In this document: positions 9,836 to 24,638 of the stretch, in pieces
Layout of the letters: each line of letters opens with the position of its first letter
How positions within the stretch are numbered: position 1 is the first letter of the stretch
NCBI RefSeq assembly: GCF_000018105.1
Contig: NC_009927.1
Coordinates: 210,001 to 242,000 of the forward strand
Direction of reading: 5' to 3'
Length of the DNA stretch: 32,000 nt
Origin: Acaryochloris marina MBIC11017
GTDB taxonomy: Bacteria > Cyanobacteriota > Cyanobacteriia > Thermosynechococcales > Thermosynechococcaceae
Notes under the pieces: model-generated
The model's database searches: none
Seen by the model: only the letters and a program-made list of their open reading frames with translations
What the model was told of the DNA's origin: nothing
Program-made: the position numbers and the translations under genes

Positions 9836-10729
9836 TTACCGACTTACGCCGCCATGGCCTAACAAGTCGTCATAGGTCTTCTGAGGTAAATGTGAATACT
9901 TCAATGCCTTTTCGACTGATGCCCCTCGTCTTAGGTATCGGGCCGCTGACTGAGCTTGCCAGTAGAGTTTGTGATTGCGGTTTATCTGTCGCAATCCTCT
10001 AGCCCGGTGCAATCCCCTAATCAGGTAATTGGCTAAGGCCTTGTTGTCCAACGTCGATCGGTCAATCAGGATCCGTCCCGTGGTTGAGACCTTGGCGACT
10101 CGCCGAACCAGCTTCGGAGATTGTCTAATCTGAACAGGCCTAGGGGCCTTAGCACTGGGATCTGATACCTTCACAGGAAAACTAGACCGGGGGCTGGAAG
10201 GCTTGGGGGGCTTAACCGAGAGAGTCACCGGCTTATTAATCGGTGCGTTTTCCTGGCCTGAATGAACGACTTCCAAGCGAGGGAACTGCTGAAACCCCTT
10301 ATTGACCGGTGGGGCAGTTGCCACTAAAGGCTGGGCTGGCCCCGCTGTGTACATGGTCAGGATGTTATCAGGGGCCTCGCCGACCCGAGTAATCCGGTAA
10401 CGCAGAGATTTAGTGCCCAATGGTCCCGAGACCTTCAACACCAAAGAGGCCGATTTTGCGGTACTGCCTTTCACCCATCGGAGGACTAGTTGATCTCTCT
10501 CTGCCTGAGAGGGAGCTAAGGCCCTGAACTCCGTATGGTCACTTGAACGGGCCTCTAGAACCGTGTAGCCGGTTTCACTGAGATCAAGAAAGTGATCCGT
10601 TTCCCCGGACACTTCTAGATTCTGTGCCTTATTAAAGGCCTCGCCGATCACCAAAGAGGCAGGGTTCGCTAGTCCGGGTAATGCGGTTAATGCCACTAGG
10701 CCTAAAGTCGATAATGTTGTTTTGAACAT
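9836..10729 (-). CDS. Secreted protein: signal peptide, beta-rich domain, Pro-rich linker and a basic helical C-terminal module
   Basis: 297 aa with signal peptide MFKTTLSTLGLVALTALPGLANP. The C-terminus ARYLRRGASVEKALKYSHLPQKTYDDLLGHGGVSR recurs twice upstream (12142.. and 12396..). Confidence 0.6.
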   Translation of the reverse strand: MFKTTLSTLGLVALTALPGLANPASLVIGEAFNKAQNLEVSGETDHFLDLSETGYTVLEARSSDHTEFRALAPSQAERDQLVLRWVKGSTAKSASLVLKVSGPLGTKSLRYRITRVGEAPDNILTMYTAGPAQPLVATAPPVNKGFQQFPRLEVVHSGQENAPINKPVTLSVKPPKPSSPRSSFPVKVSDPSAKAPRPVQIRQSPKLVRRVAKVSTTGRILIDRSTLDNKALANYLIRGLHRARGLRQINRNHKLYWQAQSAARYLRRGASVEKALKYSHLPQKTYDDLLGHGGVSR

Positions 10730-12158
10730 AGGTTGAGTACCTGTCTAATTTTTTGGATGGCTGGGAAGAACGGATCCGTCCTTCCTTTGTGGTTGGCCCT
10801 CTTACGCTGTCCCTTCGGAGGACATGAAAAAGCCCGGTGGCATAGTGTACGGCTCCCTTTAAGAAACCAAAGGCGAAGGGTAAAACCCCAGAAAAACCAG
10901 GCAGGGAAGAGAGGATCCGTTCTTCCTTGGTGGGGTCTGAAGTGGGCATATCTGCAGATCGGCCCTCGAAAACGGTCTCTAAATCCAGACCGAGACCTGG
11001 CCGATTTATGCCTGTTTCACTCTGCTTAAGCAGGGGGCAATCTACCAGAGCATCAACCATCGACTGAACCGGCGTAACAACGGCTTGAATGGCTCGACCA
11101 ATCCGACCGCCCAGCCGTACAGCATCCACACGAGGCAATATTGGAAAGACCCGTCTAACAACTACTTCAGGGATTGCCAGGACTTCGGGGGTCTCTACGC
11201 TGGTATCGCCTGCTAAGAATTCGTGGACAGTACTTTTGGCTTTTTTGATGAACTGACGGACTCTCTCAGGTCCTACACCGTGTCTTTCACCAATCTCCTT
11301 AGCGCTGTACCCTTCAATCCGACTGGTCACTGCATCAACATGCTTGGACTCTAGACGCCCGCTCTCTTCTAAGGCTTGAAGAATATCAGCCTGTTCTGTG
11401 GATAGAGCATAGGCCCAAGGATCGCAGCTGTGATCAACTAATGCGCTCTCATATTGGATGGTGGAATCTTCATCAATCAAGCCACTGAGGCTTAGGGATT
11501 GGGTAAAGTTCTTTGCCATCAGGGCATTTAAGACCGTTTGCACCGTTAAATTGCTTTGTTCTGCAATCTCTTCGACGCTGGGTTCCCGACCCAAGGCATT
11601 AGTCAAAAATGCTGCCGCCTCATTAACAGCGGATACATTACGGGACACTTCCCGACTGATGCCCGCTTCACTGCAATACCTCTTTTGAATCTCAGTCCGC
11701 AGAACCCAACTGAAATAGGTAATAAAACGATGTCCTTTGGACTCGTCGTACTTCTTTGCTGCAATGTCTACCGCCGCCTCACCAGAACAGACTAAGGCTT
11801 GACGGTCTATGCTCCGGTCATAACGCTGGGATGCAGTGACGATAAACCCTTTATATTCCTTGATTAACTGGCGTAATGCCCGAGGATTGCCGACTCTAAC
11901 TTTTTGGATTAGATCTAGTTCCTGATCGAAGGTTAATCGGCTATCTGATTTTGGTTCTTGCGTAAATCTGCCTATCATATCCATGAGCCTTGAATTGGTA
12001 GTAGGTTTGAGGCTTTCAGGCTTTGGCGGTGTCGAGATCGTCGAGGCCTGTTTTTGTTCGGTAGGTTCTTCCTTGATCTCCATTGAAGAAACATAGGCAG
12101 AATGGCCCTTAAGGTGCAAATTTGCCTTAATGGTGAGGGTTTCAGCGATCGACGACAC
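10632..12158 (-). CDS. Sigma-70 family RNA polymerase sigma factor with a roughly 190-aa C-terminal extension; start codon uncertain
   Basis: Region 2 reads YDESKGHRFITYFSWVLRTEIQKRY and region 4 HTH reads GYSAKEIGERHGVGPERVRQFIKKA. The extension contains RVDAVRLGGRIGRA (11091..11132) and a hydrophobic stretch LPGFSGVLPFAFGFLKGAV. The track start is GTG at 12158. Alternative ATGs at 11984 and 11978 (MDMIG...) match the MIG start of the paralog at 21600. The last 98 nt overlap the next gene. Confidence 0.8.
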   Translation of the reverse strand: MSSIAETLTIKANLHLKGHSAYVSSMEIKEEPTEQKQASTISTPPKPESLKPTTNSRLMDMIGRFTQEPKSDSRLTFDQELDLIQKVRVGNPRALRQLIKEYKGFIVTASQRYDRSIDRQALVCSGEAAVDIAAKKYDESKGHRFITYFSWVLRTEIQKRYCSEAGISREVSRNVSAVNEAAAFLTNALGREPSVEEIAEQSNLTVQTVLNALMAKNFTQSLSLSGLIDEDSTIQYESALVDHSCDPWAYALSTEQADILQALEESGRLESKHVDAVTSRIEGYSAKEIGERHGVGPERVRQFIKKAKSTVHEFLAGDTSVETPEVLAIPEVVVRRVFPILPRVDAVRLGGRIGRAIQAVVTPVQSMVDALVDCPLLKQSETGINRPGLGLDLETVFEGRSADMPTSDPTKEERILSSLPGFSGVLPFAFGFLKGAVHYATGLFHVLRRDSVRGPTTKEGRIRSSQPSKKLDRYSTYVQNNIIDFRPSGINRITRTSEPCLFGDRRGL

Positions 12159-12215
12159 CGTGATCTAGGAAGTCATCAAAGGTCTTTTGAGGCAGTCGGG
12201 ACCAGCGCAACAATT
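12096..12215. repeat. Direct repeat, copy A (partner 12350..12470)
   Basis: A 79-nt core, ggcagaatggcccttaaggtgcaaatttgccttaatggtgagggtttcagcgatcgacgacaccgtgatctaggaagtc, is 73/79 identical by my count to the copy 254 nt downstream. Similarity continues more weakly for about 40 nt (ggcagtcgggaccag[c/t]gcaaca). Confidence 0.85.
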
Positions 12216-12314
12216 TCTCAATGGATACGCCGCTTTTGAGGTGGCGGGATTGGCGAGGGCCGACGTGGATGTGATCGCCAACAGTCCCAGTGACATTAAT
12301 GTGGTTTTGATCAT
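12142..12314 (-). pseudogene. Internally deleted, frameshifted paralog of the 297-aa secreted protein
   Basis: ATG 12314 opens MIKTTLMSLGLLAITSTSALANPATS... (compare MFKTTLSTLGLVALTALPGLANPASL) and stops after 49 aa (TAG 12165..12167). A different frame encodes RHLKSGVSIEKLLRWSRLPQKTFDDFLDHGVVDR* (stop 12142..12144), homologous to the C-terminus of 9836..10729. That frame has no ATG. Confidence 0.5.
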
Positions 12315-12349
12315 TTTCTATGTGGCCGATGAGCTACATAGGAAGGGTA

Positions 12350-12470
12350 GGCAGAATGGCCCTTGAGGTGCAAATTTGCCTTAACGGTAGGGGTTTCAGC
12401 GATCGATGCCACCGTGATCTAGGAAGTCCTTCAATGTTGTTTTTGGCAGTCGGGACCAGTGCAACATTGT
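12350..12470. repeat. Direct repeat, copy B (partner 12096..12215)
   Basis: See copy A. This copy carries the 3' end of ORF 12396..12635 plus a truncated sigma-N-terminus-like 33-codon frame (GTG 12412 to TGA 12311). Confidence 0.85.
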
Positions 12471-12635
12471 TTCATCCTCATATCTTGCCAGGGTTAATGC
12501 CTGAGTCTTCCGCTCAATCCGCTCCACCAAGCCCTGCTTAAGGGCCTGTTTTGCTGCTCTAATTTGACTTTGCTTAAAAGGAGTAAATTTATCCAAAGAT
12601 TTGACAACCGTGAAGATAGTCCATTTCGATTTCAA
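12396..12635 (-). CDS. Small protein or gene remnant carrying the third copy of the C-terminal LPxxT..DHGG.xR module
   Basis: 79 codons with a TTG start and no in-frame upstream ATG. An in-frame stop lies at 12648..12650, exactly at the GC-to-AT compositional boundary. The C-terminus is ARYEDETMLHWSRLPKTTLKDFLDHGGIDR*. Confidence 0.35.
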   Translation of the reverse strand: MKSKWTIFTVVKSLDKFTPFKQSQIRAAKQALKQGLVERIERKTQALTLARYEDETMLHWSRLPKTTLKDFLDHGGIDR

Positions 12636-16060: not shown

Positions 16061-19000
16061 TCAACCCGTTTTCTCGGTAGAGTCCAAAGGGGAACCATCA
16101 TCACCCCCCTCAAGCTGCCCGAGTTCCTGATCATTTCCCTGACCAAATCCATCAATTTCAGATCGCTTATCAATTTCTGTAATTAGATCGTCCTCTTTCT
16201 TACAGATTTCACAACTTGGTCTATTTTTCTCCAATCTCTGATTCCATTTCGCCTGAAATGCCTTCAGCATCTGGTCTTTGTACGCTTCATTACCTGAATA
16301 GCGAATCACATACAGACTCACGGATTCCTCACTGCCCACCTTCACCAGCTCATGGGCCACTCTCTTGATTAACTTGTTGACGATGGCAACGGCACTCTGC
16401 CCTTCACTGATGACATTCCTGAAGTGGCGATAGATTTGATAGCGATATTCCAACGCCTTCACCTTAATATCTTCCAACCGCTGATCATCCTCCGTCATCA
16501 CCATGATTTCCATCCGCATCCGGGCCTCCACCTGCTCATATCGGGCCTGGGTAAACGCCTGAGACTGCTGCTCAATGGCCTCCACCAAACCCTGCTTCTG
16601 ACCCTTGAGGGTCTGCTTCTGCTGTTCCAACTGCTCCAGTTCCCCCTTCAGCGTTGCCTTCCTGGGATGGGCCTTTCTGCCTAACGCCGTCAATTTGGCT
16701 TGAATGACCTTCTGCTCCTGAATGATTTCCCTGATCTGCCCAGCTAATCCCTTGACTTCCAATCTCAAAGACTGTCGTTGACGCTGCACCTGGCGACCCT
16801 TTTCCAACGCTTTGTCGTAGGCTTCATAATCAGCGCTGGTGACATTGTAGGTATCCACTAAATCAAATACCCCCAAGTCACGAAGTAACTGTACCTGGAT
16901 GCGATTATTGGTTAACCGATGAGTCAACACGAACTGACTATTGAGCTGTTTCATAAAATTCCTCCGGTCTAATTCCTCAGCAACTTCAGGGTGAAAGCTC
17001 ATCCAATGCAACTTTGTGGCACTCTTGAGCCGTCCTCGATGCTCGACACAGACTTGATGAATGAATTCATCCGTGAGGTCCACACCAGGCAATTCATCTT
17101 GCAGCAAGACCTTCTTGGCATCCAACGTATCTTTATAGGTGGCAGAAGAACTCCCCATCACTCGGATGGCCTGCTCCACCGTGAACCGTTCCCCATCAGC
17201 CGTTCCCAGCATCACGGCTGTCTCTCGCTCCATCTGCTTCCGCACTTTACTGAAGGACTCGACGATATCGGCATTGCGCTCTCTCAGCTCCTCCATCTCA
17301 ATCGAATGTCCATGATCTTTCAACAACAGCATCAAGGACTCTCTGAGGGCTAACAGTGACGCAATGGAGCGGGTCTGATACCGAGCAAAGCTGACGTTGT
17401 GACAGTTATTGGGATTCTGCTGATATGCCTTCAGTGCTGCTAACTGCTGAGCCGTTTCCGGGGATTGGTCATGAATGAGCTGCTGTTCTAAATCAATGGA
17501 GGCCGCAACGTCTTGTCCATACTTGGACTGAAGCATGATGACCTGTTCCACGGACTTAATCGAAGGGATATCTGGGATATGGGCCTTCCTCGTCACATAG
17601 ATTTCACGAGTGACTTTTGCTCTGTATCTCCAGAGCTGCTGATAGACACTGCGGGCATGGTTGGATGAGGCATAGCAGAACACTCGACTGAAATAGGGAA
17701 TCAATCGGGGTTCATCAATACTGACCCCACTCTCGGCTGTAGGGCTGAGGAATAGTGCCGTGGGTCGATAGTCTTCGACAAACTGAGTGGGATTGGCCTG
17801 AAAGGTTTTGTTCTCTGGTCGTTCTGAGGTCTTCCTGTCATGGCGCAAAATGCCCTTGGCAAACTCAGGGTTCATTTCTGCGATGATTCGCTCAAGCTTC
17901 TCTAGGAATTCTTGCGATGTGGCGACGACAATAAACTTTTCATCAGCAGCTACGGCATTTAGGATTCTCTCTAGAAACTGAGAGGTCTGTCCTGAGAACA
18001 CCTTCGTGGGAAAGTTATCGTCAGGCTTATATTCATTGACGATAATCTTAGTGTTGTACTTCCCGCCTGTGATGCCCTTGATATAGTCAATGGGAATTTG
18101 AGACAGGGAATCTTCCAAGAGAATGATATTGCCTTGGGTTTCTAAGACCCGGTTTGCGATCGCATGGAAATGCTCCAAGATCTGATTCTGCCGATCCCCC
18201 AAGGTTTGACCACTGAGGACATGGAATAAAGCAGCATCGGCTTCATCGAGGATGATGCAGCTATCAGGTTCAATATCATCAAGTTCTATCTTGAGTAGGC
18301 TATCGAAGCAAAGGAGAATAGACCGTTCAGACCGAAAGCCCATGCTGATATTGCCCTGGTATTCCTTATTGAGTCGGAATAGGTGAATCAGCTTGTAGAG
18401 GGTATTGCCGTTGGCGTCAGTCTCGGTGAATCGGTCCTCGGTATTAAACAGCAGGTTATTCCGGTAACCGGGCATAATCACCTGGCCCTTGACCTGGCCC
18501 ACCAGGGACTTCAGCATCTCCGTCTTGCCAGTGCCACACATGGAAGCAATGGCGACCACTGACCCCGGATCAATGGTGCCTAGATCTGAGAGTTCGATGT
18601 AGCGCTTGTTGATAACCGTTGTGGCTTTATCCGATAGACCATTGAGCTTTAGAAAGAGCTGACCCAACTCATATTCCAGACCCAAGCTATTGAAAAACCA
18701 AGTGGGCTTGAATACGATTTGGGCCAATTCCACTTGAGTGAGTTCATCGATATCGCAGGAATTCTCCTTGTAGGTCTGCCCCCACCAGGCCACTTCCACG
18801 GCATAGCCCCATTCTTCTAGTAAGCGAATGACTCGCTGATATTGGTGAAAGACATTGAGGTTCCGCACGGCACCCGCATCAGGATAGAGGGTGATGATCG
18901 GGGTCTGTTCAGCAGATTTCGATAAGACGGTCAGAGTTTCTCGTAAGGTTTCAGGCGATGAGGCCCAGAGTCCCCCCGCTGCGCCAATCGTGGGGAGCTG

Positions 19001-19807
19001 CAATCGTTGAGACAAGAGATAGGGCTTGACCCCCGTTCCTTCAACGAGGGCTATCCGAGAGTAGGGACCAAAGGACTTGTAGACGGCTAAGGGAATTTCA
19101 CCGTTGACATGAGGACCATTGCCGTTAGGATTGCGGCGGGTAAAACTGGACAACCAGATGTAGCGGTTGTCAGTATCAACATTCCGCTTTCTGAGCTGCA
19201 ACGCTGTTATTTGACCGTGGACGTTGTAGAGAGGCCAGAGATAGCCCCCCTGTGAATTGAGGAAGCCATCGGGGAGAACACCGGGCAAGTCCAAAGAAAA
19301 GTCTTTGACTCGCTGAAATTGACCCACGGAGAAGGCTTGGAAGCCATTGATTTCAGCCTGGGACATGCACCGCCGAACCAAGTCCCCCTGATCCATTGAG
19401 CAGAGAGAAAGATCCGAGAGGAGTTGTCGATATTGCTGATCGCGGAGTTCAATAGGCAGCTCTCTGGCAATTCGCTGTTGCCGTTTTTCTTCCGCTTGCT
19501 TTTCCCTTAAGGCTTTGCGGGTTTCCCAATCGATGGCGTTGAAATCCTCGCCCGTGTGGGGTGCCCAGATGCCCCAGAGATAGTTCTTGGTGAGTTTGCG
19601 GAATTTGTAGCCGTTGACGGTGCCAATGTCCTGAGTCTCGGACATGCAGAGAACGATGTCGCCACCGCCTCGGCAACGGCCATCGTGGGAGTCACAGACG
19701 GGGCAGTGATTTGCTCCTCGGAAGGGGACGAGCTTTGATGGGGTTCTTCCCGGTGTACCAAAGCCAAGTTGAGGTGGATTCAGAGTGAGTGAGGCCGTGG
19801 AGGTCAT
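16061..19807 (-). CDS. Plasmid Rep-type primase-helicase: Zn-ribbon, Toprim-like domain, P-loop NTPase and coiled-coil tail
   Basis: 1248 aa with AAGGAGG 7 nt upstream of the ATG. The Zn-binding segment is CPVCDSHDGRCRGGGDIVLCMS. Toprim-like Glu and DxD-type motifs are RIALVEGTGVKP and IITLYPDAGAV. Walker A is ASMCGTGKTEML and the DEAD-like Walker B is CIILDEADAAL. A long Gln/Glu/Lys coiled coil lies near the C-terminus. The architecture matches what I recall of CyRepA-type (DUF3854 plus helicase) Rep proteins of cyanobacterial plasmids. Confidence 0.7.
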   Translation of the reverse strand: MTSTASLTLNPPQLGFGTPGRTPSKLVPFRGANHCPVCDSHDGRCRGGGDIVLCMSETQDIGTVNGYKFRKLTKNYLWGIWAPHTGEDFNAIDWETRKALREKQAEEKRQQRIARELPIELRDQQYRQLLSDLSLCSMDQGDLVRRCMSQAEINGFQAFSVGQFQRVKDFSLDLPGVLPDGFLNSQGGYLWPLYNVHGQITALQLRKRNVDTDNRYIWLSSFTRRNPNGNGPHVNGEIPLAVYKSFGPYSRIALVEGTGVKPYLLSQRLQLPTIGAAGGLWASSPETLRETLTVLSKSAEQTPIITLYPDAGAVRNLNVFHQYQRVIRLLEEWGYAVEVAWWGQTYKENSCDIDELTQVELAQIVFKPTWFFNSLGLEYELGQLFLKLNGLSDKATTVINKRYIELSDLGTIDPGSVVAIASMCGTGKTEMLKSLVGQVKGQVIMPGYRNNLLFNTEDRFTETDANGNTLYKLIHLFRLNKEYQGNISMGFRSERSILLCFDSLLKIELDDIEPDSCIILDEADAALFHVLSGQTLGDRQNQILEHFHAIANRVLETQGNIILLEDSLSQIPIDYIKGITGGKYNTKIIVNEYKPDDNFPTKVFSGQTSQFLERILNAVAADEKFIVVATSQEFLEKLERIIAEMNPEFAKGILRHDRKTSERPENKTFQANPTQFVEDYRPTALFLSPTAESGVSIDEPRLIPYFSRVFCYASSNHARSVYQQLWRYRAKVTREIYVTRKAHIPDIPSIKSVEQVIMLQSKYGQDVAASIDLEQQLIHDQSPETAQQLAALKAYQQNPNNCHNVSFARYQTRSIASLLALRESLMLLLKDHGHSIEMEELRERNADIVESFSKVRKQMERETAVMLGTADGERFTVEQAIRVMGSSSATYKDTLDAKKVLLQDELPGVDLTDEFIHQVCVEHRGRLKSATKLHWMSFHPEVAEELDRRNFMKQLNSQFVLTHRLTNNRIQVQLLRDLGVFDLVDTYNVTSADYEAYDKALEKGRQVQRQRQSLRLEVKGLAGQIREIIQEQKVIQAKLTALGRKAHPRKATLKGELEQLEQQKQTLKGQKQGLVEAIEQQSQAFTQARYEQVEARMRMEIMVMTEDDQRLEDIKVKALEYRYQIYRHFRNVISEGQSAVAIVNKLIKRVAHELVKVGSEESVSLYVIRYSGNEAYKDQMLKAFQAKWNQRLEKNRPSCEICKKEDDLITEIDKRSEIDGFGQGNDQELGQLEGGDDGSPLDSTEKTG

Positions 19808-19928: not shown

Positions 19929-20334
19929 TGTAGCTAGGTTAATTTAAATTAAAGAAATCTTGCCAGCACAAAGTCGGCTGCTCTAAAATAAGAACACACC
20001 ACTCAGGGATGACTAACTATTTGCCTATCCAAAGCTTCTGTTAGTTCCCGCTCTATCTGAAAAATATGATTTTTCAATCTCCGCCCTAGCTATGTCCGTA
20101 GCTGGGGTTTTGAGACTTAAGGGTTTATTTCATCGCACCTCCCAAAGAAAAATACAGAGAAACTTAGTGAACCATACTACGCCCGAACCCTCAATAGGGA
20201 AAGGCTTTAAAACAAAAGATCATAAGGGTTTAGGGATCTCAGGCAGAATCGTTTGTGGACAGAAAACTTCTCCCCTCATCCTCGACTCAGACCTAGATGA
20301 TTTGTTTTATCTCTTAGGCTGATTCCTATTGGTT

Positions 20335-21600
20335 TTAAGGAGTAATATTCGGCGGTCGCGGGTGTACTATTAGGTGTTTCATCCCAAGGAATTTAAAGAT
20401 ATTAGTTGCCATAGAATGCATCGTTGATCTCCTTGTATGGGTTATATAGTTTTCCTGAAATCCTCTGATAGCCAGATATACGAGCGCTAATGGCAGCAGA
20501 AATACACTTAGAATTTCTTGGCCGATTTCCAGATATCCTCCCCAAGCGTCTTGAATGCCTCCCAATCCACAGCATCGCTGATTCGTTGAGGAAGGTTGAT
20601 ACCCCGATTTAGGAGCAATCCTGTGATTGCTACACCGACAAAAAGCCAAAATAGGTTTCGCAACATTAGCTAGTCCTCCTAATTGACAGTTAAATTCCTC
20701 CTTTGTAGAGTTGAAAATCTGATTGAGGGCACGGCCAATCTTTCCACCTAGCCGTGGAGCATCAACACGTTTCATGACAGGTTTCTTAACTTCTTCGGGT
20801 TCTTTGGCTTGAAGTGGCTGAGGGAATCGAACCAAGCAAGCGCCGTAAGTGACTAGGTGTTTTAGATAGGCGAGGGCTTCTTTAAATAGCTGCCTGATCC
20901 TTTCACCTGAAAGGCCAAACATTCTTCCAATCGCACGATAACTGTGCCCATCCCTCCTGGCCCGAACGATTACGTTATATCGCTCGGGGAGCTGTGCTAT
21001 ATATTCCTTTTCGTCGATATTTTCCGCGTAATCCCACAGATCATCGTCACCCTCAACAAGATCAATCTGCTCTGCCTTAAGATTTTCGCCAACAGGGATA
21101 TTTAGACTGGAGGTTTCAACCACTCTCGCTCTGTCCAAAGTGCTGGTAATGATTCGCTGGGAATATCCAGTTCGCTCTGAAAGTTCTTCTAGTGTTGGCT
21201 GACGCTCTAATTCCCACTCCAGTTTTTGTGATGCTTGCTTAATATCTTTTAAGTGTTTAGCAATTTCCTTGGATAGTCCCCGCTGATCGTTAAGAAACTG
21301 CTGAATTTCAGTTCTTATGACTTTCACAGCGTAACTGCTGAACTTGCAGCCCTTAGAAACGTCAAACTTTTCAATAGCGCGGGCTAAGCCCCAGTTCCCG
21401 GCAGTAACTAAATCGTTCCAGTCATCTAGTCCGCGATACCGATTTGCTTCCTTGAAGACCAATCGCTGATTCTTTCGTATAAAACGGTCTTCAGTCCTTC
21501 TATCCCCAGCCTGAGCGAGTAGAATCTGAGGGTACTGGACCTCGTTGCTAAACTGTTCGGATCTTTGGGTTTGTGGGTTGCGTGAAGTAGTGCCTATCAT
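20335..21600 (-). CDS. Sigma-70 family sigma factor (paralog of 10632..12158) with a roughly 170-aa C-terminal extension
   Basis: 421 aa. Region 2 reads FDVSKGCKFSSYAVKVIRTEIQQFL and region 4 reads GHSYRAIGRMFGLSGERIRQLFKEALAYL. The extension has RVDAPRLGGKIGRA (20728..20769) and a TM-like EILSVFLLPLALVYLAIRGF (aa 362-380). Confidence 0.8.
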   Translation of the reverse strand: MIGTTSRNPQTQRSEQFSNEVQYPQILLAQAGDRRTEDRFIRKNQRLVFKEANRYRGLDDWNDLVTAGNWGLARAIEKFDVSKGCKFSSYAVKVIRTEIQQFLNDQRGLSKEIAKHLKDIKQASQKLEWELERQPTLEELSERTGYSQRIITSTLDRARVVETSSLNIPVGENLKAEQIDLVEGDDDLWDYAENIDEKEYIAQLPERYNVIVRARRDGHSYRAIGRMFGLSGERIRQLFKEALAYLKHLVTYGACLVRFPQPLQAKEPEEVKKPVMKRVDAPRLGGKIGRALNQIFNSTKEEFNCQLGGLANVAKPILAFCRCSNHRIAPKSGYQPSSTNQRCCGLGGIQDAWGGYLEIGQEILSVFLLPLALVYLAIRGFQENYITHTRRSTMHSMATNIFKFLGMKHLIVHPRPPNITP

Positions 21601-21626
21601 AGACTTAACCTCATGTATTCTTTACG

Positions 21627-21675
21627 GTTTCTGAGGTTGGTGGCTCTCTAGTTGTTTGACGGCGGTTAGAGAGCC
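21627..21675. repeat. 49-nt direct repeat, copy 1, containing the hairpin GGCTCTCTA-N16-TAGAGAGCC
   Basis: gtttctgaggttggtggctctctagttgtttgacggcggttagagagcc is 46/49 identical to 21729..21777. It lies in the 5' leader of the sigma gene. Confidence 0.9.
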
Positions 21676-21728
21676 ACGTTGAGATTGATTTTTTACTTTT
21701 ATCGAGAATAGTGTTTCAAGAGTTATGA

Positions 21729-21777
21729 GTTTCTGAGGTCAGTGGCTCTCTAGTTGTTTGACGGCGGTTAGAGAGCT
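21729..21777. repeat. 49-nt direct repeat, copy 2
   Basis: gtttctgaggtcagtggctctctagttgtttgacggcggttagagagct. It overlaps the stop codon (21768..21770) of ORF 21768..22073. Confidence 0.9.
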
Positions 21778-22073
21778 AATTGAATTGTGGGTAATCTGGG
21801 TAGCAAGCTTCTAAATAATCGTTTGATGGGTGAGTTATGTCGTTGGAGTGAACTTGGGTATTTCCTTGGCTTACTCTGCTGGCTGTTGCCGATCCTGATC
21901 TTCGTTGGGTTTGGCTGGTGATCAAGGTGGTTGGCGTGGGAGAGCCAAGCCAGGATGAAGTTGAGTAATTGCTGTGAGATAGTTCTTTCCCAGTCTGCTT
22001 CAGTGCGTCGAATATTACTGAAATGCTTATGGGTAAAAGGAATTTGTGGGTTGAAGTAGATACTGCCTATCAT
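21768..22073 (-). CDS. Small basic hypothetical protein (paralog of 22528..22920) whose N-terminus is homologous to the sigma factor at 21600
   Basis: 101 aa. Its MIGSIYFNPQIP...FSN compares with sigma MIGTTSRNPQTQ...FSN, and the first 30 nt are 23/30 identical. It shares RIG(N/T)S and LLPRLPT with ORF 22528..22920 and has the same 5' leader hairpin. Confidence 0.45.
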   Translation of the reverse strand: MIGSIYFNPQIPFTHKHFSNIRRTEADWERTISQQLLNFILAWLSHANHLDHQPNPTKIRIGNSQQSKPRKYPSSLQRHNSPIKRLFRSLLPRLPTIQLAL

Positions 22074-22079
22074 TTAGCT

Positions 22080-22147
22080 ATAAACCTCCTATTTAGGTTT
22101 ATTTACTGCTCTCCTGGCTTGGCATAGCTGTGGGGAGCGATTTTTTT
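22080..22147 (+). ncRNA. Candidate cis-antisense sRNA (two stem-loops plus U7) opposite the SD and leader of ORF 21768..22073
   Basis: The plus strand has TTGTGG (22044)-N18-TATCAT (22068..22073). Next come ATAAACCT-CCTATTT-AGGTTTAT (22080..22102) and GCTCTCC...GGGGAGC (22108..22138, with an inner GGCT/AGCT extension). The sequence ends GA-TTTTTTT (22141..22147). Confidence 0.3.
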
Positions 22148-22369
22148 GAAACTTAAACCCTTAACTTAAGACTTGATTTCGGAATGAGCAGAAAATTCGA
22201 CGTGTATATTATATACGGTATACGTTAATTTAGTTAGTTAGTTCAATATATTTACTTTAAGTATTTATATAGGTGGTTAATTGAAAAATAGCATATTTAG
22301 CTACTAAACAAAGGGTTTTAGAGAGAGAACTACAGAGGGGATTTGTCGTAAAATCTGAGGATTATTCAC

Positions 22370-22651
22370 ATGTGTGAACCTAAATTGATTACCTGGAACT
22401 TAAGACAAGTAATGGATGAGCATAAGATTCAGCCTGCTATTTTGGCTGAACATATGCAGACAACCCCAGTTGCGATATCGAGAATGAGGCGTCCTAAAAT
22501 GCCAAGAATGGAGGAAGATAAGCTTAATCATTTACTAATTTGTTTAAACGCCTTACGAAAATCTGGGACACCACCGATAGGCATAGCAGATTTATTGGTC
22601 TTCACCTTTACTGTTGAGGAAGCAGCGAAAGCACGAATCAACGAATCGTGA
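22370..22651 (+). CDS. XRE/Cro-type helix-turn-helix transcriptional regulator
   Basis: 93 aa with GAGGA 10 nt upstream of the ATG. WNLRQVMDEHKIQPAILAEHMQTTPVAISRMRR...LNHLLICLNAL....IADLLVF follows the pattern of small cyanobacterial HTH_XRE proteins. Confidence 0.65.
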   Translation: MCEPKLITWNLRQVMDEHKIQPAILAEHMQTTPVAISRMRRPKMPRMEEDKLNHLLICLNALRKSGTPPIGIADLLVFTFTVEEAAKARINES

Positions 22652-22920
22652 ATTGTCTTTAGAAGCTCATCCTCTGTGGGCAATCGCGGTAACAGGACTC
22701 TGATGGTTTTGGTTAGAGAATAACCAAAAAGAATGAATGGTCTACAACTGGTGCCAATTCGCTGCGTTTGTTTACCGTCGCTCTGAGAATATTGCGAATA
22801 TGTTTGGGGCTGTGAATTTTGCTGAGCGGTCCAGCCCAAGAACAAGACTTTGATTAGACCCAAGACTTGCTTTAGAAAGGTGGTTTGTGTACTTAGGTCG
22901 ATTCTACCTATCATTTTCAT
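22528..22920 (-). CDS. Small hypothetical protein (paralog of 21768..22073); its 3' end is antisense to the HTH gene
   Basis: 130 aa beginning MKMIGRIDLSTQ... GGAGG lies 5 nt upstream of ATG 22920. It shares RIGTS and LLPRLPT with the 101-aa ORF. The last roughly 40 codons overlap 22370..22651 on the opposite strand. Confidence 0.4.
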   Translation of the reverse strand: MKMIGRIDLSTQTTFLKQVLGLIKVLFLGWTAQQNSQPQTYSQYSQSDGKQTQRIGTSCRPFILFGYSLTKTIRVLLPRLPTEDELLKTIHDSLIRAFAASSTVKVKTNKSAMPIGGVPDFRKAFKQISK

Positions 22921-22989
22921 ATAAACCTCCTTGTTAGGTTTATCTATTGCTCTCTAATGGCTGTACCAAAGCCTTAGAGAGCTATTTTT
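22921..22989 (+). ncRNA. Candidate cis-antisense sRNA (two stem-loops plus U5) opposite the SD and leader of ORF 22528..22920
   Basis: The plus strand has TTGTGT (22885)-N18-TATCAT (22909..22914). Next come ATAAACCT-CCTTGTT-AGGTTTAT (22921..22943) and GCTCTCTAA...TTAGAGAGC (22949..22982, with inner GGCT/AGCC pairs). The sequence ends TA-TTTTT (22985..22989). It is closely similar to 22080..22147. Confidence 0.3.
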
Positions 22990-23273
22990 GCTTCAGGTAG
23001 CTACTGCAATCGTGTAAACCTTGAGAGTTGATTCTTCAAGACTTACATGAGATCGACGTATGACTGAATAAAAGACAAGAATGTTTTCAGTTAAATAAAT
23101 GTATGTATTTGATGTTTTATACCCCATATCTATAACGATTTCAAACCTTTGACATAAATTTGTGAAAATCAATGAACATATAGAGGAGTGAATGTCATAA
23201 ATTTATAGATTTTATATAAATAAAGTGTAAAGTAGATTTAATTGGCCCTTTAAAGCGTTATTTTGGCCGAAAA

Positions 23274-24638
23274 ATGGAATTTGAAAAAGCTAAAAGCTAT
23301 ATTAACGAGCTATCCCTCATTAAATGGGGAAAGAAGTTGGGTTTACCCGGTGAGATTGCTATTCAAGCAGCTTGGGAAGGTATTACGATTGCTCAAGCTA
23401 TTAAGGATCACCCGTTAGGCGCATCAACGAGTGAAGGATATGTTTCTTGTCGAGTGGGGCCAGACCTTTGGAAACTACTATCTCAAGAACTGGGTATAGA
23501 GGTAAAAAAGAAGAACTTACGTCTCGTCTTTGAAGAACTAGATCAGCAGGGTATGTTTGCCACTACCACTAGCGATCCCACTCCAGAACAAGAAGGCACT
23601 AAAAAAACTTCACAGCAAATAGATAACACAACATCTATAACAACTGCCCTAGGTCACCACCCCCCAAAAGTCCCTCACTTTTACGGGAGAGATGAAGACT
23701 TTCTACAACTGTCTACCACACTAGCCCAGAACCGTTTTGTAGCCTTAATTGGTGCTGCAGGAATTGGTAAGAGCGCGTTGGCCTCTATCTACGTGCAGCG
23801 CATGAACTCAAAACCTCAACCTGATTTTAAGAAAATCATATGGATGTCGCTGCATCACGGACAGACAGTTAGTGGGCTAATGGAGTTTCACTTCAAGGAG
23901 TGTGAATTTACAGCTTTGATTCAAGAACTTAGCTGTCTATTTGTAATTGACTGTGGCCCTGTAGAGTTTGAGGAGGATAAAAATTTTCAGGCTATAGCTC
24001 AGCAATTCTGTGTTGGAAGACATCAAAGCACTCTGTTGATTCTTAGCCGCAACACTGTGAGATCTGTTCAACAATTAGCCAGAATTCAAAGACCAGCAGC
24101 AACAATCAAACTAAGTGGATTACCCGATAAAGATGCACTCCGAATTCTTAAGGAACAAGGGATTCAAGGTGAATCGGATTGCAAGAAATTAATCAAATCC
24201 TATCGGGGAAATCCTCAGCTCCTTCTACTAGCAGCAGAACGTATCAATCGATTTTGTGGTGGCAAGCTTGTTGAGTCCTTTATGCTGCATAAAACATCAT
24301 TTGCCAGTGATTATGTCAGACGAGTGATTCAGGAATACAGAATGCAAGAACTGACACCGACTGAACAAAGAATACTAGATATATTGATCCAGTCAGACAA
24401 TGATGCTCCCAGGTGGATTACGTTTAGTGAATTAATGATGGAACTATCTTCTGGTGGGGGTAATGCTTCAATGTCAGAGTTGATTGAAGTTTTAGAGAAG
24501 TGGGAAGGAATGTCATTGATTGAATCTGACAACGACCAGAACACTGGAGAAGCAACGTTTATGCTTCCCCCGACCACTCGCAAGGTACTCATGCGGAATA
24601 CTCTGAACAGCCTTGTTTCATTTTCGCAGCCTGCATGA
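23274..24638 (+). CDS. STAND (NB-ARC-like) P-loop NTPase with an N-terminal HTH-like domain and no C-terminal repeat sensor
   Basis: 454 aa. The N-terminus AAWEGITIAQAIKDHPLGASTSEGYVSCRVGPDLWKLLSQELGIEVKKKNLRLVFEEL matches a domain I recall at the N-termini of cyanobacterial NACHT/WD40 proteins. FYGRDEDF precedes Walker A LIGAAGIGKSALA, and Walker B is CLFVIDCGP. The stop overlaps the next start (ATGA). Confidence 0.65.
   Translation: MEFEKAKSYINELSLIKWGKKLGLPGEIAIQAAWEGITIAQAIKDHPLGASTSEGYVSCRVGPDLWKLLSQELGIEVKKKNLRLVFEELDQQGMFATTTSDPTPEQEGTKKTSQQIDNTTSITTALGHHPPKVPHFYGRDEDFLQLSTTLAQNRFVALIGAAGIGKSALASIYVQRMNSKPQPDFKKIIWMSLHHGQTVSGLMEFHFKECEFTALIQELSCLFVIDCGPVEFEEDKNFQAIAQQFCVGRHQSTLLILSRNTVRSVQQLARIQRPAATIKLSGLPDKDALRILKEQGIQGESDCKKLIKSYRGNPQLLLLAAERINRFCGGKLVESFMLHKTSFASDYVRRVIQEYRMQELTPTEQRILDILIQSDNDAPRWITFSELMMELSSGGGNASMSELIEVLEKWEGMSLIESDNDQNTGEATFMLPPTTRKVLMRNTLNSLVSFSQPA

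Follow-up and report, generated by a model that had tools for sequence, protein, structure and literature searches.

Cis-antisense RNA beside a cyanobacterial plasmid replication gene has been described in pSYSA, a CyRepA1 plasmid of Synechocystis 6803, where an abundant antisense transcript lies upstream of the rep gene (PMC9978351). This RNA, asRNA1, is ~150 nt long, begins at the ssr7036 stop codon, and spans the coding region of that gene, and a role in copy-number control was proposed for pSYSA (PMC9978351). The window analyzed here, a 32,000-nt stretch of plasmid pREB2 of Acaryochloris marina MBIC11017, encodes a Rep protein with 26% identity to Slr7037 (BLASTP, E 4e-27) and carries a repeated module of ~110 bp, each copy of which (cassettes 1-4, Table 1) faces the start of a minus-strand gene. 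Comparison of these modules makes it probable that they form a new antisense sRNA family, each being a small plus-strand RNA gene. The kind of plasmid control that the predicted sRNA cassettes would represent is familiar, but its setting is new.

Table 1. Features of the cassette region of pREB2 (positions within the window)
Feature	Coordinates	Strand	Remarks
Second sigma-70-family gene	10632..11978	-	448 aa from MIG start; Pfam Sigma70_r3/r4
Cassette 4 promoter-like region	11949..11978	+	TTTTGG/TTGGTT 11949-11956, 16-18 nt spacer, TATCAT 11973-11978
Cassette 4 predicted sRNA, ~74 nt	11985..12058	+	hairpin A 11985-12015, hairpin B 12017-12050, tail GUUUUUGUU
CyRepA1 replication gene	16061-19807		downstream of sigma-421 gene
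Sigma-70-family gene (sigma-421)	20335..21600	-	421 aa; AM1_B0294; UniRef name 'Sigma-28 subunit'
Cassette 1 promoter-like region	21571..21600	+	TTGTGG 21571-21576, 18-nt spacer, TATCAT 21595-21600
Cassette 1 hairpin A	21607-21638	+	carries anti-SD
Cassette 1 hairpin B, copy 1a	21640-21677	+	18 bp on plus strand, only 10 bp on minus
-10-like box TAAAAAAT	21688..21695	-	immediately upstream of hairpin B'; complementary to the T6 of the initial annotation
Duplicate of hairpin-A 3' arm and hairpin B, copy 1b	21729..21776	+	hairpin 21744-21776
ORF101	21768..22073	-	AM1_B0295
44-codon ORF	21787..21921	+	GTG start; C-terminal TM-like helix
Cassette 2 promoter-like region	22044..22073	+	TTGTGG 22044-22049, 18-nt spacer, TATCAT 22068-22073
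Cassette 2 predicted sRNA, 68 nt	22080..22147	+	hairpin A 22080-22102, hairpin B 22107-22139, U7 22141-22147
Small Cro/CI-type HTH gene	22370..22651	+	between units 2 and 3; position conserved in relatives
ORF130	22528..22914	-	AM1_B0296; conserved MIG start at 22914; ORF101 paralogue
Cassette 3 promoter-like region	22885..22914	+	TTGTGT 22885-22890, 18-nt spacer, TATCAT 22909-22914
Cassette 3 predicted sRNA, 69 nt	22921..22989	+	hairpin A 22921-22943, hairpin B 22949-22982, U5 22985-22989

Cassettes 1, 2, and 3 were checked against the sequence and lie where the initial annotation had placed them. That annotation missed cassette 4, which is complete (11949-12058) and sits opposite the ATG ATA GGC start of the second sigma gene, as well as hairpin B copy 1b, which is 96% identical to the first copy. 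Ten related Acaryochloris plasmids or contigs have the same layout, with a sigma gene and then a CyRepA1 replication gene downstream; the compared sequences are often close kin, so that counts across them exceed the number of independent events. PGAP annotation of the relatives supports the location of the cassettes upstream of a CyRepA1-family rep gene. Several motifs are overrepresented: CCTATCAT occurs five times, always on the plus strand (1.1 expected on both strands together), GCTCTCY...RGAGAGC three times (0.02 expected), and the hairpin-A motif twice (0.01 expected). The locus also contains direct repeats, one of 71 nt with 79% identity and another of 31 nt with 77%.

The shared ATG ATA GG(C/T) starts of three minus-strand ORFs, and the TATCAT and TTGTG(G/T) pairs with 18-nt spacers opposite them, had been noted initially and are present in the sequence. 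In cassettes 1-3, the CAT of each TATCAT is the complement of the ATG in this start; in cassette 4, it is complementary to the second sigma gene's ATG. Every cassette has a TTG 16-18 nt upstream of TAYCAT, with a spacer of 18 nt in most copies, and both TAnnnT and TTG are invariant among the compared cassettes. The distance from the -10 box to the conserved TA opening hairpin A is fixed at 6-7 nt. The -35 element agrees with the sigma-70 consensus (TTGACA) at TTG alone, i.e., 3/6 bases, and a simple consensus scan flagged none of the cassette sites as a sigma-70 promoter.

In cassette 1, the -10 box covers the sigma start codon and codon 2, and the TTG is complementary to CAA, the codon for Gln10. 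Codon 2 of the opposing ORFs is ATA (n = 17) or GTA (n = 6) in all 23 distinct cassettes, while both are rare in the long ORFs of the window (ATA, 14% of Ile codons; GTA, 16% of Val codons). The wobble position of this codon is invariably A, and this base provides the -10 box with its first T. The TTG is retained as CAA where the residue is Gln and, where it is Lys, as CC-CAA-AA spanning two codons; the promoter-like TTG and TAYCAT pair is conserved at the DNA level even where the encoded residues differ. It had been suggested that the N-terminal protein conservation is really conservation of an antisense promoter. The invariance of the codon-2 wobble base supports this idea, although a preference for A-rich, unstructured initiation regions could likewise account for the wobble A, and ORF101 and ORF130 themselves look like real paralogous ORFs. 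The accompanying statement that TATCAT does not allow synonymous mutation is wrong, as changing ATA to ATC or ATT alters the -12 T.

The ORF101 frame is open in 10/10 relatives, with indels of 15 and 45 nt that are multiples of three, and pN/pS falls from 0.4-0.7 over its N-terminal half to 0.12-0.2 over its C-terminal half. The ORF probably encodes a real small basic protein. Its stop codon, which falls within copy 1b in the window, always lies inside a hairpin-B copy upstream of sigma, 45-170 nt before the sigma start. ORF130 is open in all relatives carrying unit 3 and is under weak constraint (pN/pS 0.59). The second sigma gene is probably AM1_B0287, for which PGAP sets the start at 12158, 60 codons upstream of the MIG start. 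Its product is colinear with sigma-421 from residue 1 and only 28% identical to it, and the locus still has ATGATAGGC / GCCTATCAT, an upstream TTG, a U-tract, and two hairpins unrelated in sequence.

Hairpin A begins 7 nt past the -10 box and carries an anti-SD (CCUCC, CCUUC, or CCUCA) at its stem/loop junction. Hairpins A and B with the U-runs at 22141-22147 and 22985-22989 fold as originally described. The fold z-scores of window cassettes 1-3 range from -3.5 to -6.0, with -23.2 kcal/mol (z -3.5) for the plus strand of cassette 2 and -25.9 kcal/mol (z -6.0) for that of cassette 3, where the R1 model matches at 22922-22988. T-rich tails after hairpin B (5-8 T per 10 nt) are conserved in nearly all copies of cassettes 2, 3, and 4, and these three cassettes have the GC-rich stem directly followed by a U-tract that defines a Rho-independent terminator. 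In 20000-24000, where cassettes 1-3 lie, a simple scan detected no terminator-like site.

The sigma-421 copy had been called less clean, and it is: no relative has a U-tract directly after the cassette-1 stem or a clean terminator, and the tail is weak, interrupted, and U-rich, with the T6 at 21689-21694 separated from the stem. On the minus strand, the complement of this T6 belongs to TAAAAAAT, a candidate sense promoter of the sigma mRNA, and an equivalent NANAAT box lies 5-12 nt upstream of the hairpin in 11/11 loci. The T-runs could be partly the complement of A-rich sense-promoter sequence.

Pairing is strand specific. Across 17 sequences of hairpin B from cassette 1/1b, 88.6% of cells are paired on the plus strand vs 63.1% on the minus strand, and one-sided G-U/Watson-Crick variation occurs at nine pairs on the plus strand vs one on the minus strand; the upper eight pairs of the cassette-1 hairpin form on the plus strand only. 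A scan of 26 TAYCAT-anchored segments (four of them not cassettes) showed the plus strand to be the more stable in 23, with a mean difference of 8 kcal/mol. Cassette-2 orthologues fold only on the plus strand, as in L001 (-24.4, z -3.1 for plus vs -5.3, z -0.36 for minus), and cassette 4 reaches -34.2 kcal/mol (z -5.9) on the plus strand vs -11.5 kcal/mol (z -1.6) on the minus strand. In window cassette 3, the strands fold equally well (-25.9 for plus vs -25.6 for minus). The proposal of short plus-strand RNAs antisense to the leaders is thus borne out in part, by strand-specific structure, conserved tails, and conserved TTG/TAYCAT.

In the mechanism that we propose, the promoter would consist of the TTG as -35 element, a spacer of 16-18 nt, and TAYCAT as -10 box, whose last three bases are the complement of the opposing ATG and whose first T is the complement of the codon-2 wobble base. 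Transcription would start at a conserved A 7 nt downstream of the -10 box, the first base of hairpin A, and in cassettes 2, 3, and 4, it would terminate at the GC-rich hairpin B and U-tract, giving RNAs of 68-74 nt. Each RNA would show perfect complementarity to the minus-strand mRNA from -7 to ~-75, and we therefore propose that pairing occludes the ribosome-binding site and represses translation. The predicted targets are the two plasmid sigma-factor genes and the small paralogous ORFs AM1_B0295 and AM1_B0296, which lie just upstream of the sigma and CyRepA1 gene pair. Cassette 1, facing sigma-421, has a promoter and hairpins as in the other cassettes, and its weak tail would be complementary to the probable -10 box of the sense promoter. 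Transcription from cassette 1 may stop at this tail, or it may continue through 1b and the stretch opposite ORF101 to the terminator of cassette 2 (22147). Architecture, conservation, and strand-specific pairing are what the sequences show; transcription, the RNA ends, repression of translation, and any bearing on plasmid copy number or incompatibility are inferred. An A. marina RNA-seq study was not strand specific, and its tables are without coordinates for this pREB2 region.

The hairpins may also be exchanged between plasmids. Those of window cassette 2 share 81% identity with L004 and 49% with L001, while L001 is the nearest relative (80-95%) for all flanking segments, a pattern that would be expected from an exchangeable specificity module. 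As a doubtful extension, the cassettes might be such modules of a sigma-factor-dependent CyRepA1 replicon, the antisense RNAs of each plasmid setting the levels of its own sigma factor and of the small AM1_B0295-type protein, which would drive rep expression or primer transcription. If this were true, swaps of hairpin modules between plasmids would create new incompatibility groups, which could explain how many related megaplasmids are kept in one Acaryochloris cell.

Strand-specific hairpins with T-runs suit any plus-strand transcript, and they could be only the 3' UTRs or intrinsic terminators of plus-strand genes, TTG...TAYCAT being kept merely as start-codon context of the minus-strand genes, without a separate small RNA. 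Downstream of the HTH gene that precedes cassette 3 (22370-22651), no obvious terminator comes before 22949-22989, and upstream of cassette 2 lies the conserved 44-codon ORF (21787-21921), which would encode a membrane peptide. The start and stop of this ORF are conserved in most relatives and its pN/pS is 0.30, but its wobble positions are shared with ORF101 (0.24), L018 lacks its GTG start, the corresponding plus-strand frame in unit 3 is broken, whereas the ORF on the minus strand there stays open, and it has no homologue in the protein database; it is probably a shadow ORF, with dual coding as the alternative. Cassette 4 has the same design with no upstream plus-strand gene that would need a terminator, cassette 1 lies within the 5' end of a minus-strand gene, and the invariant codon-2 wobble A, the frame-independent TTG, and the fixed spacing from -10 box to hairpin would go unexplained, which makes this explanation improbable. 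We regard as quite improbable, too, that the cassettes act in cis as structures in the 5' UTRs of the minus-strand mRNAs (an SD-sequestering thermometer, a protein-binding leader, or translational coupling with ORF101) without any antisense RNA. The minus-strand leaders of all three window cassettes do fold so that the 3' arm of hairpin A' contains the SD (z -3.6 to -6.4), as the initial annotation had claimed, and cassette-1 hairpin A' retains one additional A-U or G-U pair on this strand. The sense -10-like box just upstream of hairpin B' and the constant termination of ORF101 within a hairpin-B copy also fit. However, SD sequestration holds for this plasmid and is lost in relatives (cassette 2, z -0.36) and absent in cassette 4 (z -1.6), in both cases with minus-strand structure no better than in shuffles; neither the plus-strand-only upper pairs of cassette-1 hairpin B nor the T-runs downstream on the plus strand are accounted for.

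The repeats might instead act as DNA, either as inverted-repeat operators for the HTH protein or a sigma factor or as single-stranded hairpins for priming by the CyRepA1 primase-helicase or at an origin. A replication gene adjoins, several related inverted repeats cluster there, the module is exchanged between plasmids, and strand-specific G-T pairing could equally serve a single-stranded DNA hairpin. We still consider such a role very unlikely, as 8-20 bp of variable sequence lie between the half-sites, the hairpins have wholly different sequences from one cassette to the next while the architecture is retained, and it would not explain why the repeats are in fixed register with start codons, why hairpin A carries an anti-SD, or why there are U-tracts.

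The locus resembles type I toxin-antitoxin systems (hok/sok; par-fst of pAD1) in that a 44-codon hydrophobic plus-strand ORF lies amid overlapping sense and antisense features and is flanked by direct repeats. However, the conservation of this ORF is ambiguous given the shared wobble positions and the start lost in one relative, and the predicted small RNAs could not be antisense to it because both are on the same strand. CopA/CopT-tap-repA (R1, IncFII) and the related leader-peptide-coupled systems of IncB/IncI-alpha plasmids likewise have a countertranscript opposite the leader of an upstream small ORF, and ORF101 ends in a stable hairpin upstream of the next gene, a position that could couple translation. 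Here, the distance from the ORF101 stop to the next start is 45-170 nt and the downstream gene encodes a sigma factor, not Rep.

With pSYSA, pREB2 shares a CyRepA1-type Rep and, upstream of rep, a small ORF with a cis-antisense RNA, which on pREB2 is predicted. The pREB2 RNAs would differ in being ~70 nt long and in covering 5' leaders only, not the coding region, and a sigma-factor gene separates cassette and rep. No significant similarity exists between Ssr7036 and ORF101 (E 3.1).

The initial annotation had seen a mirror of FinP/traJ of F-like plasmids, and the architecture agrees: a short cis-antisense RNA, encoded on the other strand of a plasmid regulatory gene's 5' leader, with two stem-loops, the first carrying the complement of the target ribosome-binding site and the second being a terminator. 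The likeness is one of analogy only, as FinP has no sequence or covariance-model similarity to the pREB2 cassettes; Rfam gave no match at gathering scores across the window and, at E up to 5, none to the FinP (RF00107), CopA, or RNAI models in 21500-23100 and 11900-12500. Unlike FinP, the predicted pREB2 RNAs end short of the start codon, which is overlain instead by the -10 box, their targets are sigma factors and small ORFs rather than a transfer activator, and each plasmid carries several paralogous cassette copies.

The cassettes facing the start codons of sigma-421 (cassette 1), ORF101 (cassette 2), ORF130 (cassette 3) and a second sigma-family gene (cassette 4) each combine a promoter-like TTG...TAYCAT with two plus-strand hairpins, A and B. 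Judged from sequence comparison, they probably constitute a family of small cis-antisense RNA genes with promoters that would lie over the start codons of the target genes. All coordinates in the initial annotation were correct when checked against the sequence, and the motifs occur at a frequency far above chance expectation. A second copy of hairpin B (1b) had been overlooked, as had cassette 4.

Positions of cassettes, genes and repeats on the window scale
Feature	Position	Strand	Remarks
Second sigma-family gene	10632-11978	-	448 aa, MIG start
Second sigma-family gene, PGAP start	10632-12158	-	508 aa; GTG 60 codons upstream
Cassette 4	11949-12058	+	Complete; 10 kb away from the other cassettes
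127-nt direct repeat, first copy	12094-12220		Opens with TAGGCAGAATGG
127-nt direct repeat, second copy	12348-12474		Opens with TAGGCAGAATGG; the two copies are 86% identical
CyRepA1-related gene	16061-19807		1248-aa protein
Sigma-421	20335-21600	-	421 aa
C-terminal extension of sigma-421	20335-20820	-	~160 aa
Second hairpin-B copy and hairpin-A 3' arm	21729-21776		96% identical
ORF101	21768-22073	-	GenBank AM1_B0295
44-codon ORF	21787-21921	+	Conserved; TM-like C-terminal helix (…SELGYFLGLLCWLLPILIFVGFGW)
Cassette-2 hairpins	22074-22147	+	
AT-rich segment	22190-22300		Separates cassette 2 from the HTH gene; short palindromes GTGTATATTATATAC, GGTATACG; perfect TATAAT on the minus strand
ORF130	22528-22914	-	GenBank AM1_B0296

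Cassettes 1, 1b, 2 and 3 lie at equivalent positions in six related loci (L001-L006), and cassettes are also present in the further contigs L013, L015 and L016-L018; since close kinship is common among the sequences compared, conservation counts here are higher than the number of independent events. A cassette-1 covariance model matched all copies of cassettes 1 and 1b and, more weakly, several copies of cassettes 2 and 3, every match having the same orientation. The larger sigma genes of three loci (L009-L011) are without a cassette, and a scan of a genome collection with the sigma alignment gave one unrelated locus among the matches listed. The 1b duplication is wholly absent from pMB08 (L002, 3290-3350). 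In the divergent pREC4 (L005, 4310-4360), a T5 run comes after hairpin 1b, and units 2 and 3, including the ORF101 unit with cassette 2, are absent. The duplication and units 2 and 3 are thus accessory to the core sigma cassette.

The CAT of cassette 4 is the complement of the ATG ATA GGC start of the second sigma-family gene (Pfam Sigma70_r3/r4), and the cassette has GCCTATCAT with a TTG upstream of it, two strong hairpins that are unrelated in sequence, and the tail UGUUUUUGUU. This architecture has been kept although the second sigma and sigma-421 are only 28% identical. The two proteins are colinear from residue 1 of the MIG start, which favors that start; the longer PGAP form would cross cassette 4 and enter the 127-nt repeat, and the comparison suggests that PGAP over-extends the gene. 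Six Acaryochloris plasmids contain sequence related to this repeat, often in multiple copies each, and a motif resembling it follows hairpin 1b in pREC4. Both sigma paralogues and all orthologues have a conserved C-terminal extension past region 4 (RVDAxRLGGxIG… and a hydrophobic stretch), which is unusual for a sigma factor.

Comparison of the two strands was the key test, because Watson-Crick hairpins are strand-symmetric and G-U pairs are not. Over 17 sequences of hairpin B from cassettes 1 and 1b, pairing holds in 88.6% of cells when read as the plus strand versus 63.1% as the minus strand, and the upper eight pairs hold G-U, or G-U to Watson-Crick switches, on the plus strand only. In homologous plasmids, one-sided G-U/Watson-Crick changes occur at nine pairs of this hairpin on the plus strand versus one on the minus strand, in favor of the antisense RNA proposal. 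At the base of hairpin B, pairs alternate in this way too (U-A/U-G and G-C/G-U) from one cassette type to another. Of 26 TAYCAT-anchored segments that fold well (4 of them not cassettes), 23 are more stable as the plus strand, by a mean of 8 kcal/mol. For the cassette-2 orthologue of L001, the values are -24.4 kcal/mol (z -3.1) for the plus strand and -5.3 (z -0.36, no better than shuffles) for the minus strand; for cassette 4, they are -34.2 (z -5.9) and -11.5 (z -1.6). As pairing and fold stability favor the plus strand across relatives, the plus-strand RNA structure is what is conserved. The minus-strand hairpins that had been proposed to sequester the SD are present in this plasmid but are not the conserved structure in relatives.

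In the promoter-like part, seventeen cassette copies (16 distinct sequences) share TTTG, a variable 18-nt spacer and GCC TAYCAT, and a conserved TA 6-7 nt downstream of TAYCAT opens hairpin A. TAYCAT begins with a T that is complementary to the codon-2 wobble base, and codon 2 is ATA (n = 17) or GTA (n = 6) in 23 of 23 distinct cassettes; in the long ORFs of the window, ATA accounts for only 14% of Ile codons and GTA for only 16% of Val codons. TTG is the complement of CAA (Gln10) and, where the residue is Lys, is kept out of frame as CC-CAA-AA over two codons, which argues that it is conserved as DNA and not as protein. The wobble base and the frame-independent TTG support the idea, raised in the initial annotation, that the N-terminal conservation may be antisense-promoter conservation. 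Its statement that TATCAT cannot be mutated synonymously was wrong, since changing codon 2 from ATA to ATC would be a synonymous promoter-down change. Against an antisense promoter, only three of six bases match in the -35 element, and a consensus promoter scan listed none of the cassette sites. The conserved GGGTAAT and TAGGC motifs might also be read as a SigF-type TAGGC...GGTAA promoter.

In nearly all plasmids, hairpin B of cassettes 2, 3 and 4 runs into a T-rich tail, and cassette 4 has no upstream plus-strand gene that would require a terminator. A clean U-tract was never found at cassette 1 in any relative. The cassette-1 tail is instead the complement of a NANAAT box that, on the minus strand, precedes hairpin B' by 5-12 nt in 11 of 11 loci. 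This box is a candidate sense -10 element, in which case sense and antisense promoters would stand face to face at cassette 1, about 90 bp apart.

The cassette-2 hairpins share 81% identity with their L004 counterparts and 49% with the ones in L001, the closest relative in the flanking segments throughout (80-95%; 40-56% for L004 in adjacent segments), with the mosaic breakpoint at about the CAT of the start codon and -10 box. As hairpins and flanks match different plasmids, the predicted RNA-coding part has moved between plasmids as a unit.

ORF101 and ORF130 correspond to GenBank AM1_B0295 and AM1_B0296 of A. marina MBIC11017, which puts the window on plasmid pREB2; neither is called in the RefSeq PGAP annotation. 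A highly conserved block in the spacer between the sigma and HTH genes coincides with the 44-codon plus-strand ORF, which lies antisense to the better-conserved half of ORF101. This overlap, with a pN/pS of 0.78 beyond the block, first suggested that ORF101 is purely a shadow of the plus-strand ORF. The pN/pS values of the two (0.30 for the plus-strand ORF, 0.24 for ORF101) cannot separate them, as they share wobble positions. The shadow reading was revised on several grounds. All relatives keep the minus-strand frame open (chance per sequence, 5-15% for unit 2 and about 1.5% for unit 3), with indels of 15 and 45 nt, both multiples of three. In a protein-guided codon alignment of 10 sequences, pS is flat along ORF101 and pN/pS is 0.4-0.7 in the N-terminal and 0.12-0.2 in the C-terminal half. 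The GTG start of the plus-strand ORF is lost in L018, and the ORF130 and ORF101 families are homologous over the stretch MIG to LLPRLPT (hhalign probability 94%, E 1.3e-7), with only the minus-strand frame intact in unit 3. ORF101 is thus fairly likely to be a real gene, and the comparison suggests that AM1_B0295 and AM1_B0296 are probably real small genes omitted by PGAP. Amino acid conservation in the TM half is about twofold higher for the plus-strand frame, which leaves room for dual coding; the 44-codon ORF may be dual coding or encode a type-I-toxin-like peptide. A protein search gave no homologue of the 44-aa peptide, and tblastn against plasmids gave matches in the three closest relatives only. 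The ORF101 stop always lies inside a hairpin-B copy upstream of sigma, a position that, speculatively, suits translational coupling.

The nearest PLSDB plasmids are all from Acaryochloris. Six of the closest share a gene order in which a CyRepA1 gene is preceded on the same strand by a sigma-70-family gene, followed beyond sigma by an unannotated spacer of ~750 nt, a small opposite-strand HTH gene and a spacer of ~620 nt. A STAND ATPase gene comes next in four of the six loci and a different gene in the other two. The AT-rich segment beside the HTH gene probably contains divergent promoters or an operator.

The one A. marina transcriptome study consulted is not strand-specific and gives no usable coordinates for this region, and the 51% and 36% of pREB2 reads assigned by Rockhopper to unannotated regions cannot be localised (PMC5295598, supplementary file 13). 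Such reads make up 0-1% for pREB1, 3, 5 and 7, and high values alternate oddly between replicons (pREB2, 4, 6 and 8) (PMC5295598). A literature search gave no published description of the RNAs proposed here.

Acaryochloris carries many large, related plasmids, and to our knowledge, essentially nothing is known of their replication, coexistence or regulation. If the proposal is true, antisense sRNA genes facing plasmid sigma genes beside rep would be a concrete, testable control point with a bearing on copy number, incompatibility and vector design. They would also clearly exemplify how a promoter on the opposite strand can constrain the start codon and codon 2 that it overlaps. The interest is moderate and mainly for cyanobacterial plasmid biology.

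Plasmid control by antisense RNAs is of a well-known kind; the form proposed here would be new. The cassette architecture would work like FinP/traJ and plasmid countertranscripts, and the FinP-like label holds for architecture but not for membership in a curated RNA family, as Rfam gave no match above the gathering thresholds and no relevant one when E values up to 5 were allowed. We know of no CyRepA1 replicon studied other than pSYSA, where an antisense RNA has a proposed role in copy-number control. The 1248-aa protein of the window is a relative of pSYSA CyRepA1, Slr7037 (26% identity, E 4e-27), and by analogy, pSYSA is the nearest biological precedent. There, the small ORF ssr7036 lies upstream of CyRepA1 and is overlapped by an abundant antisense RNA, but this RNA is ~150 nt long and covers the coding region, no sigma gene intervenes (PMC9978351), and in our sequence comparison Ssr7036 is unrelated to ORF101.
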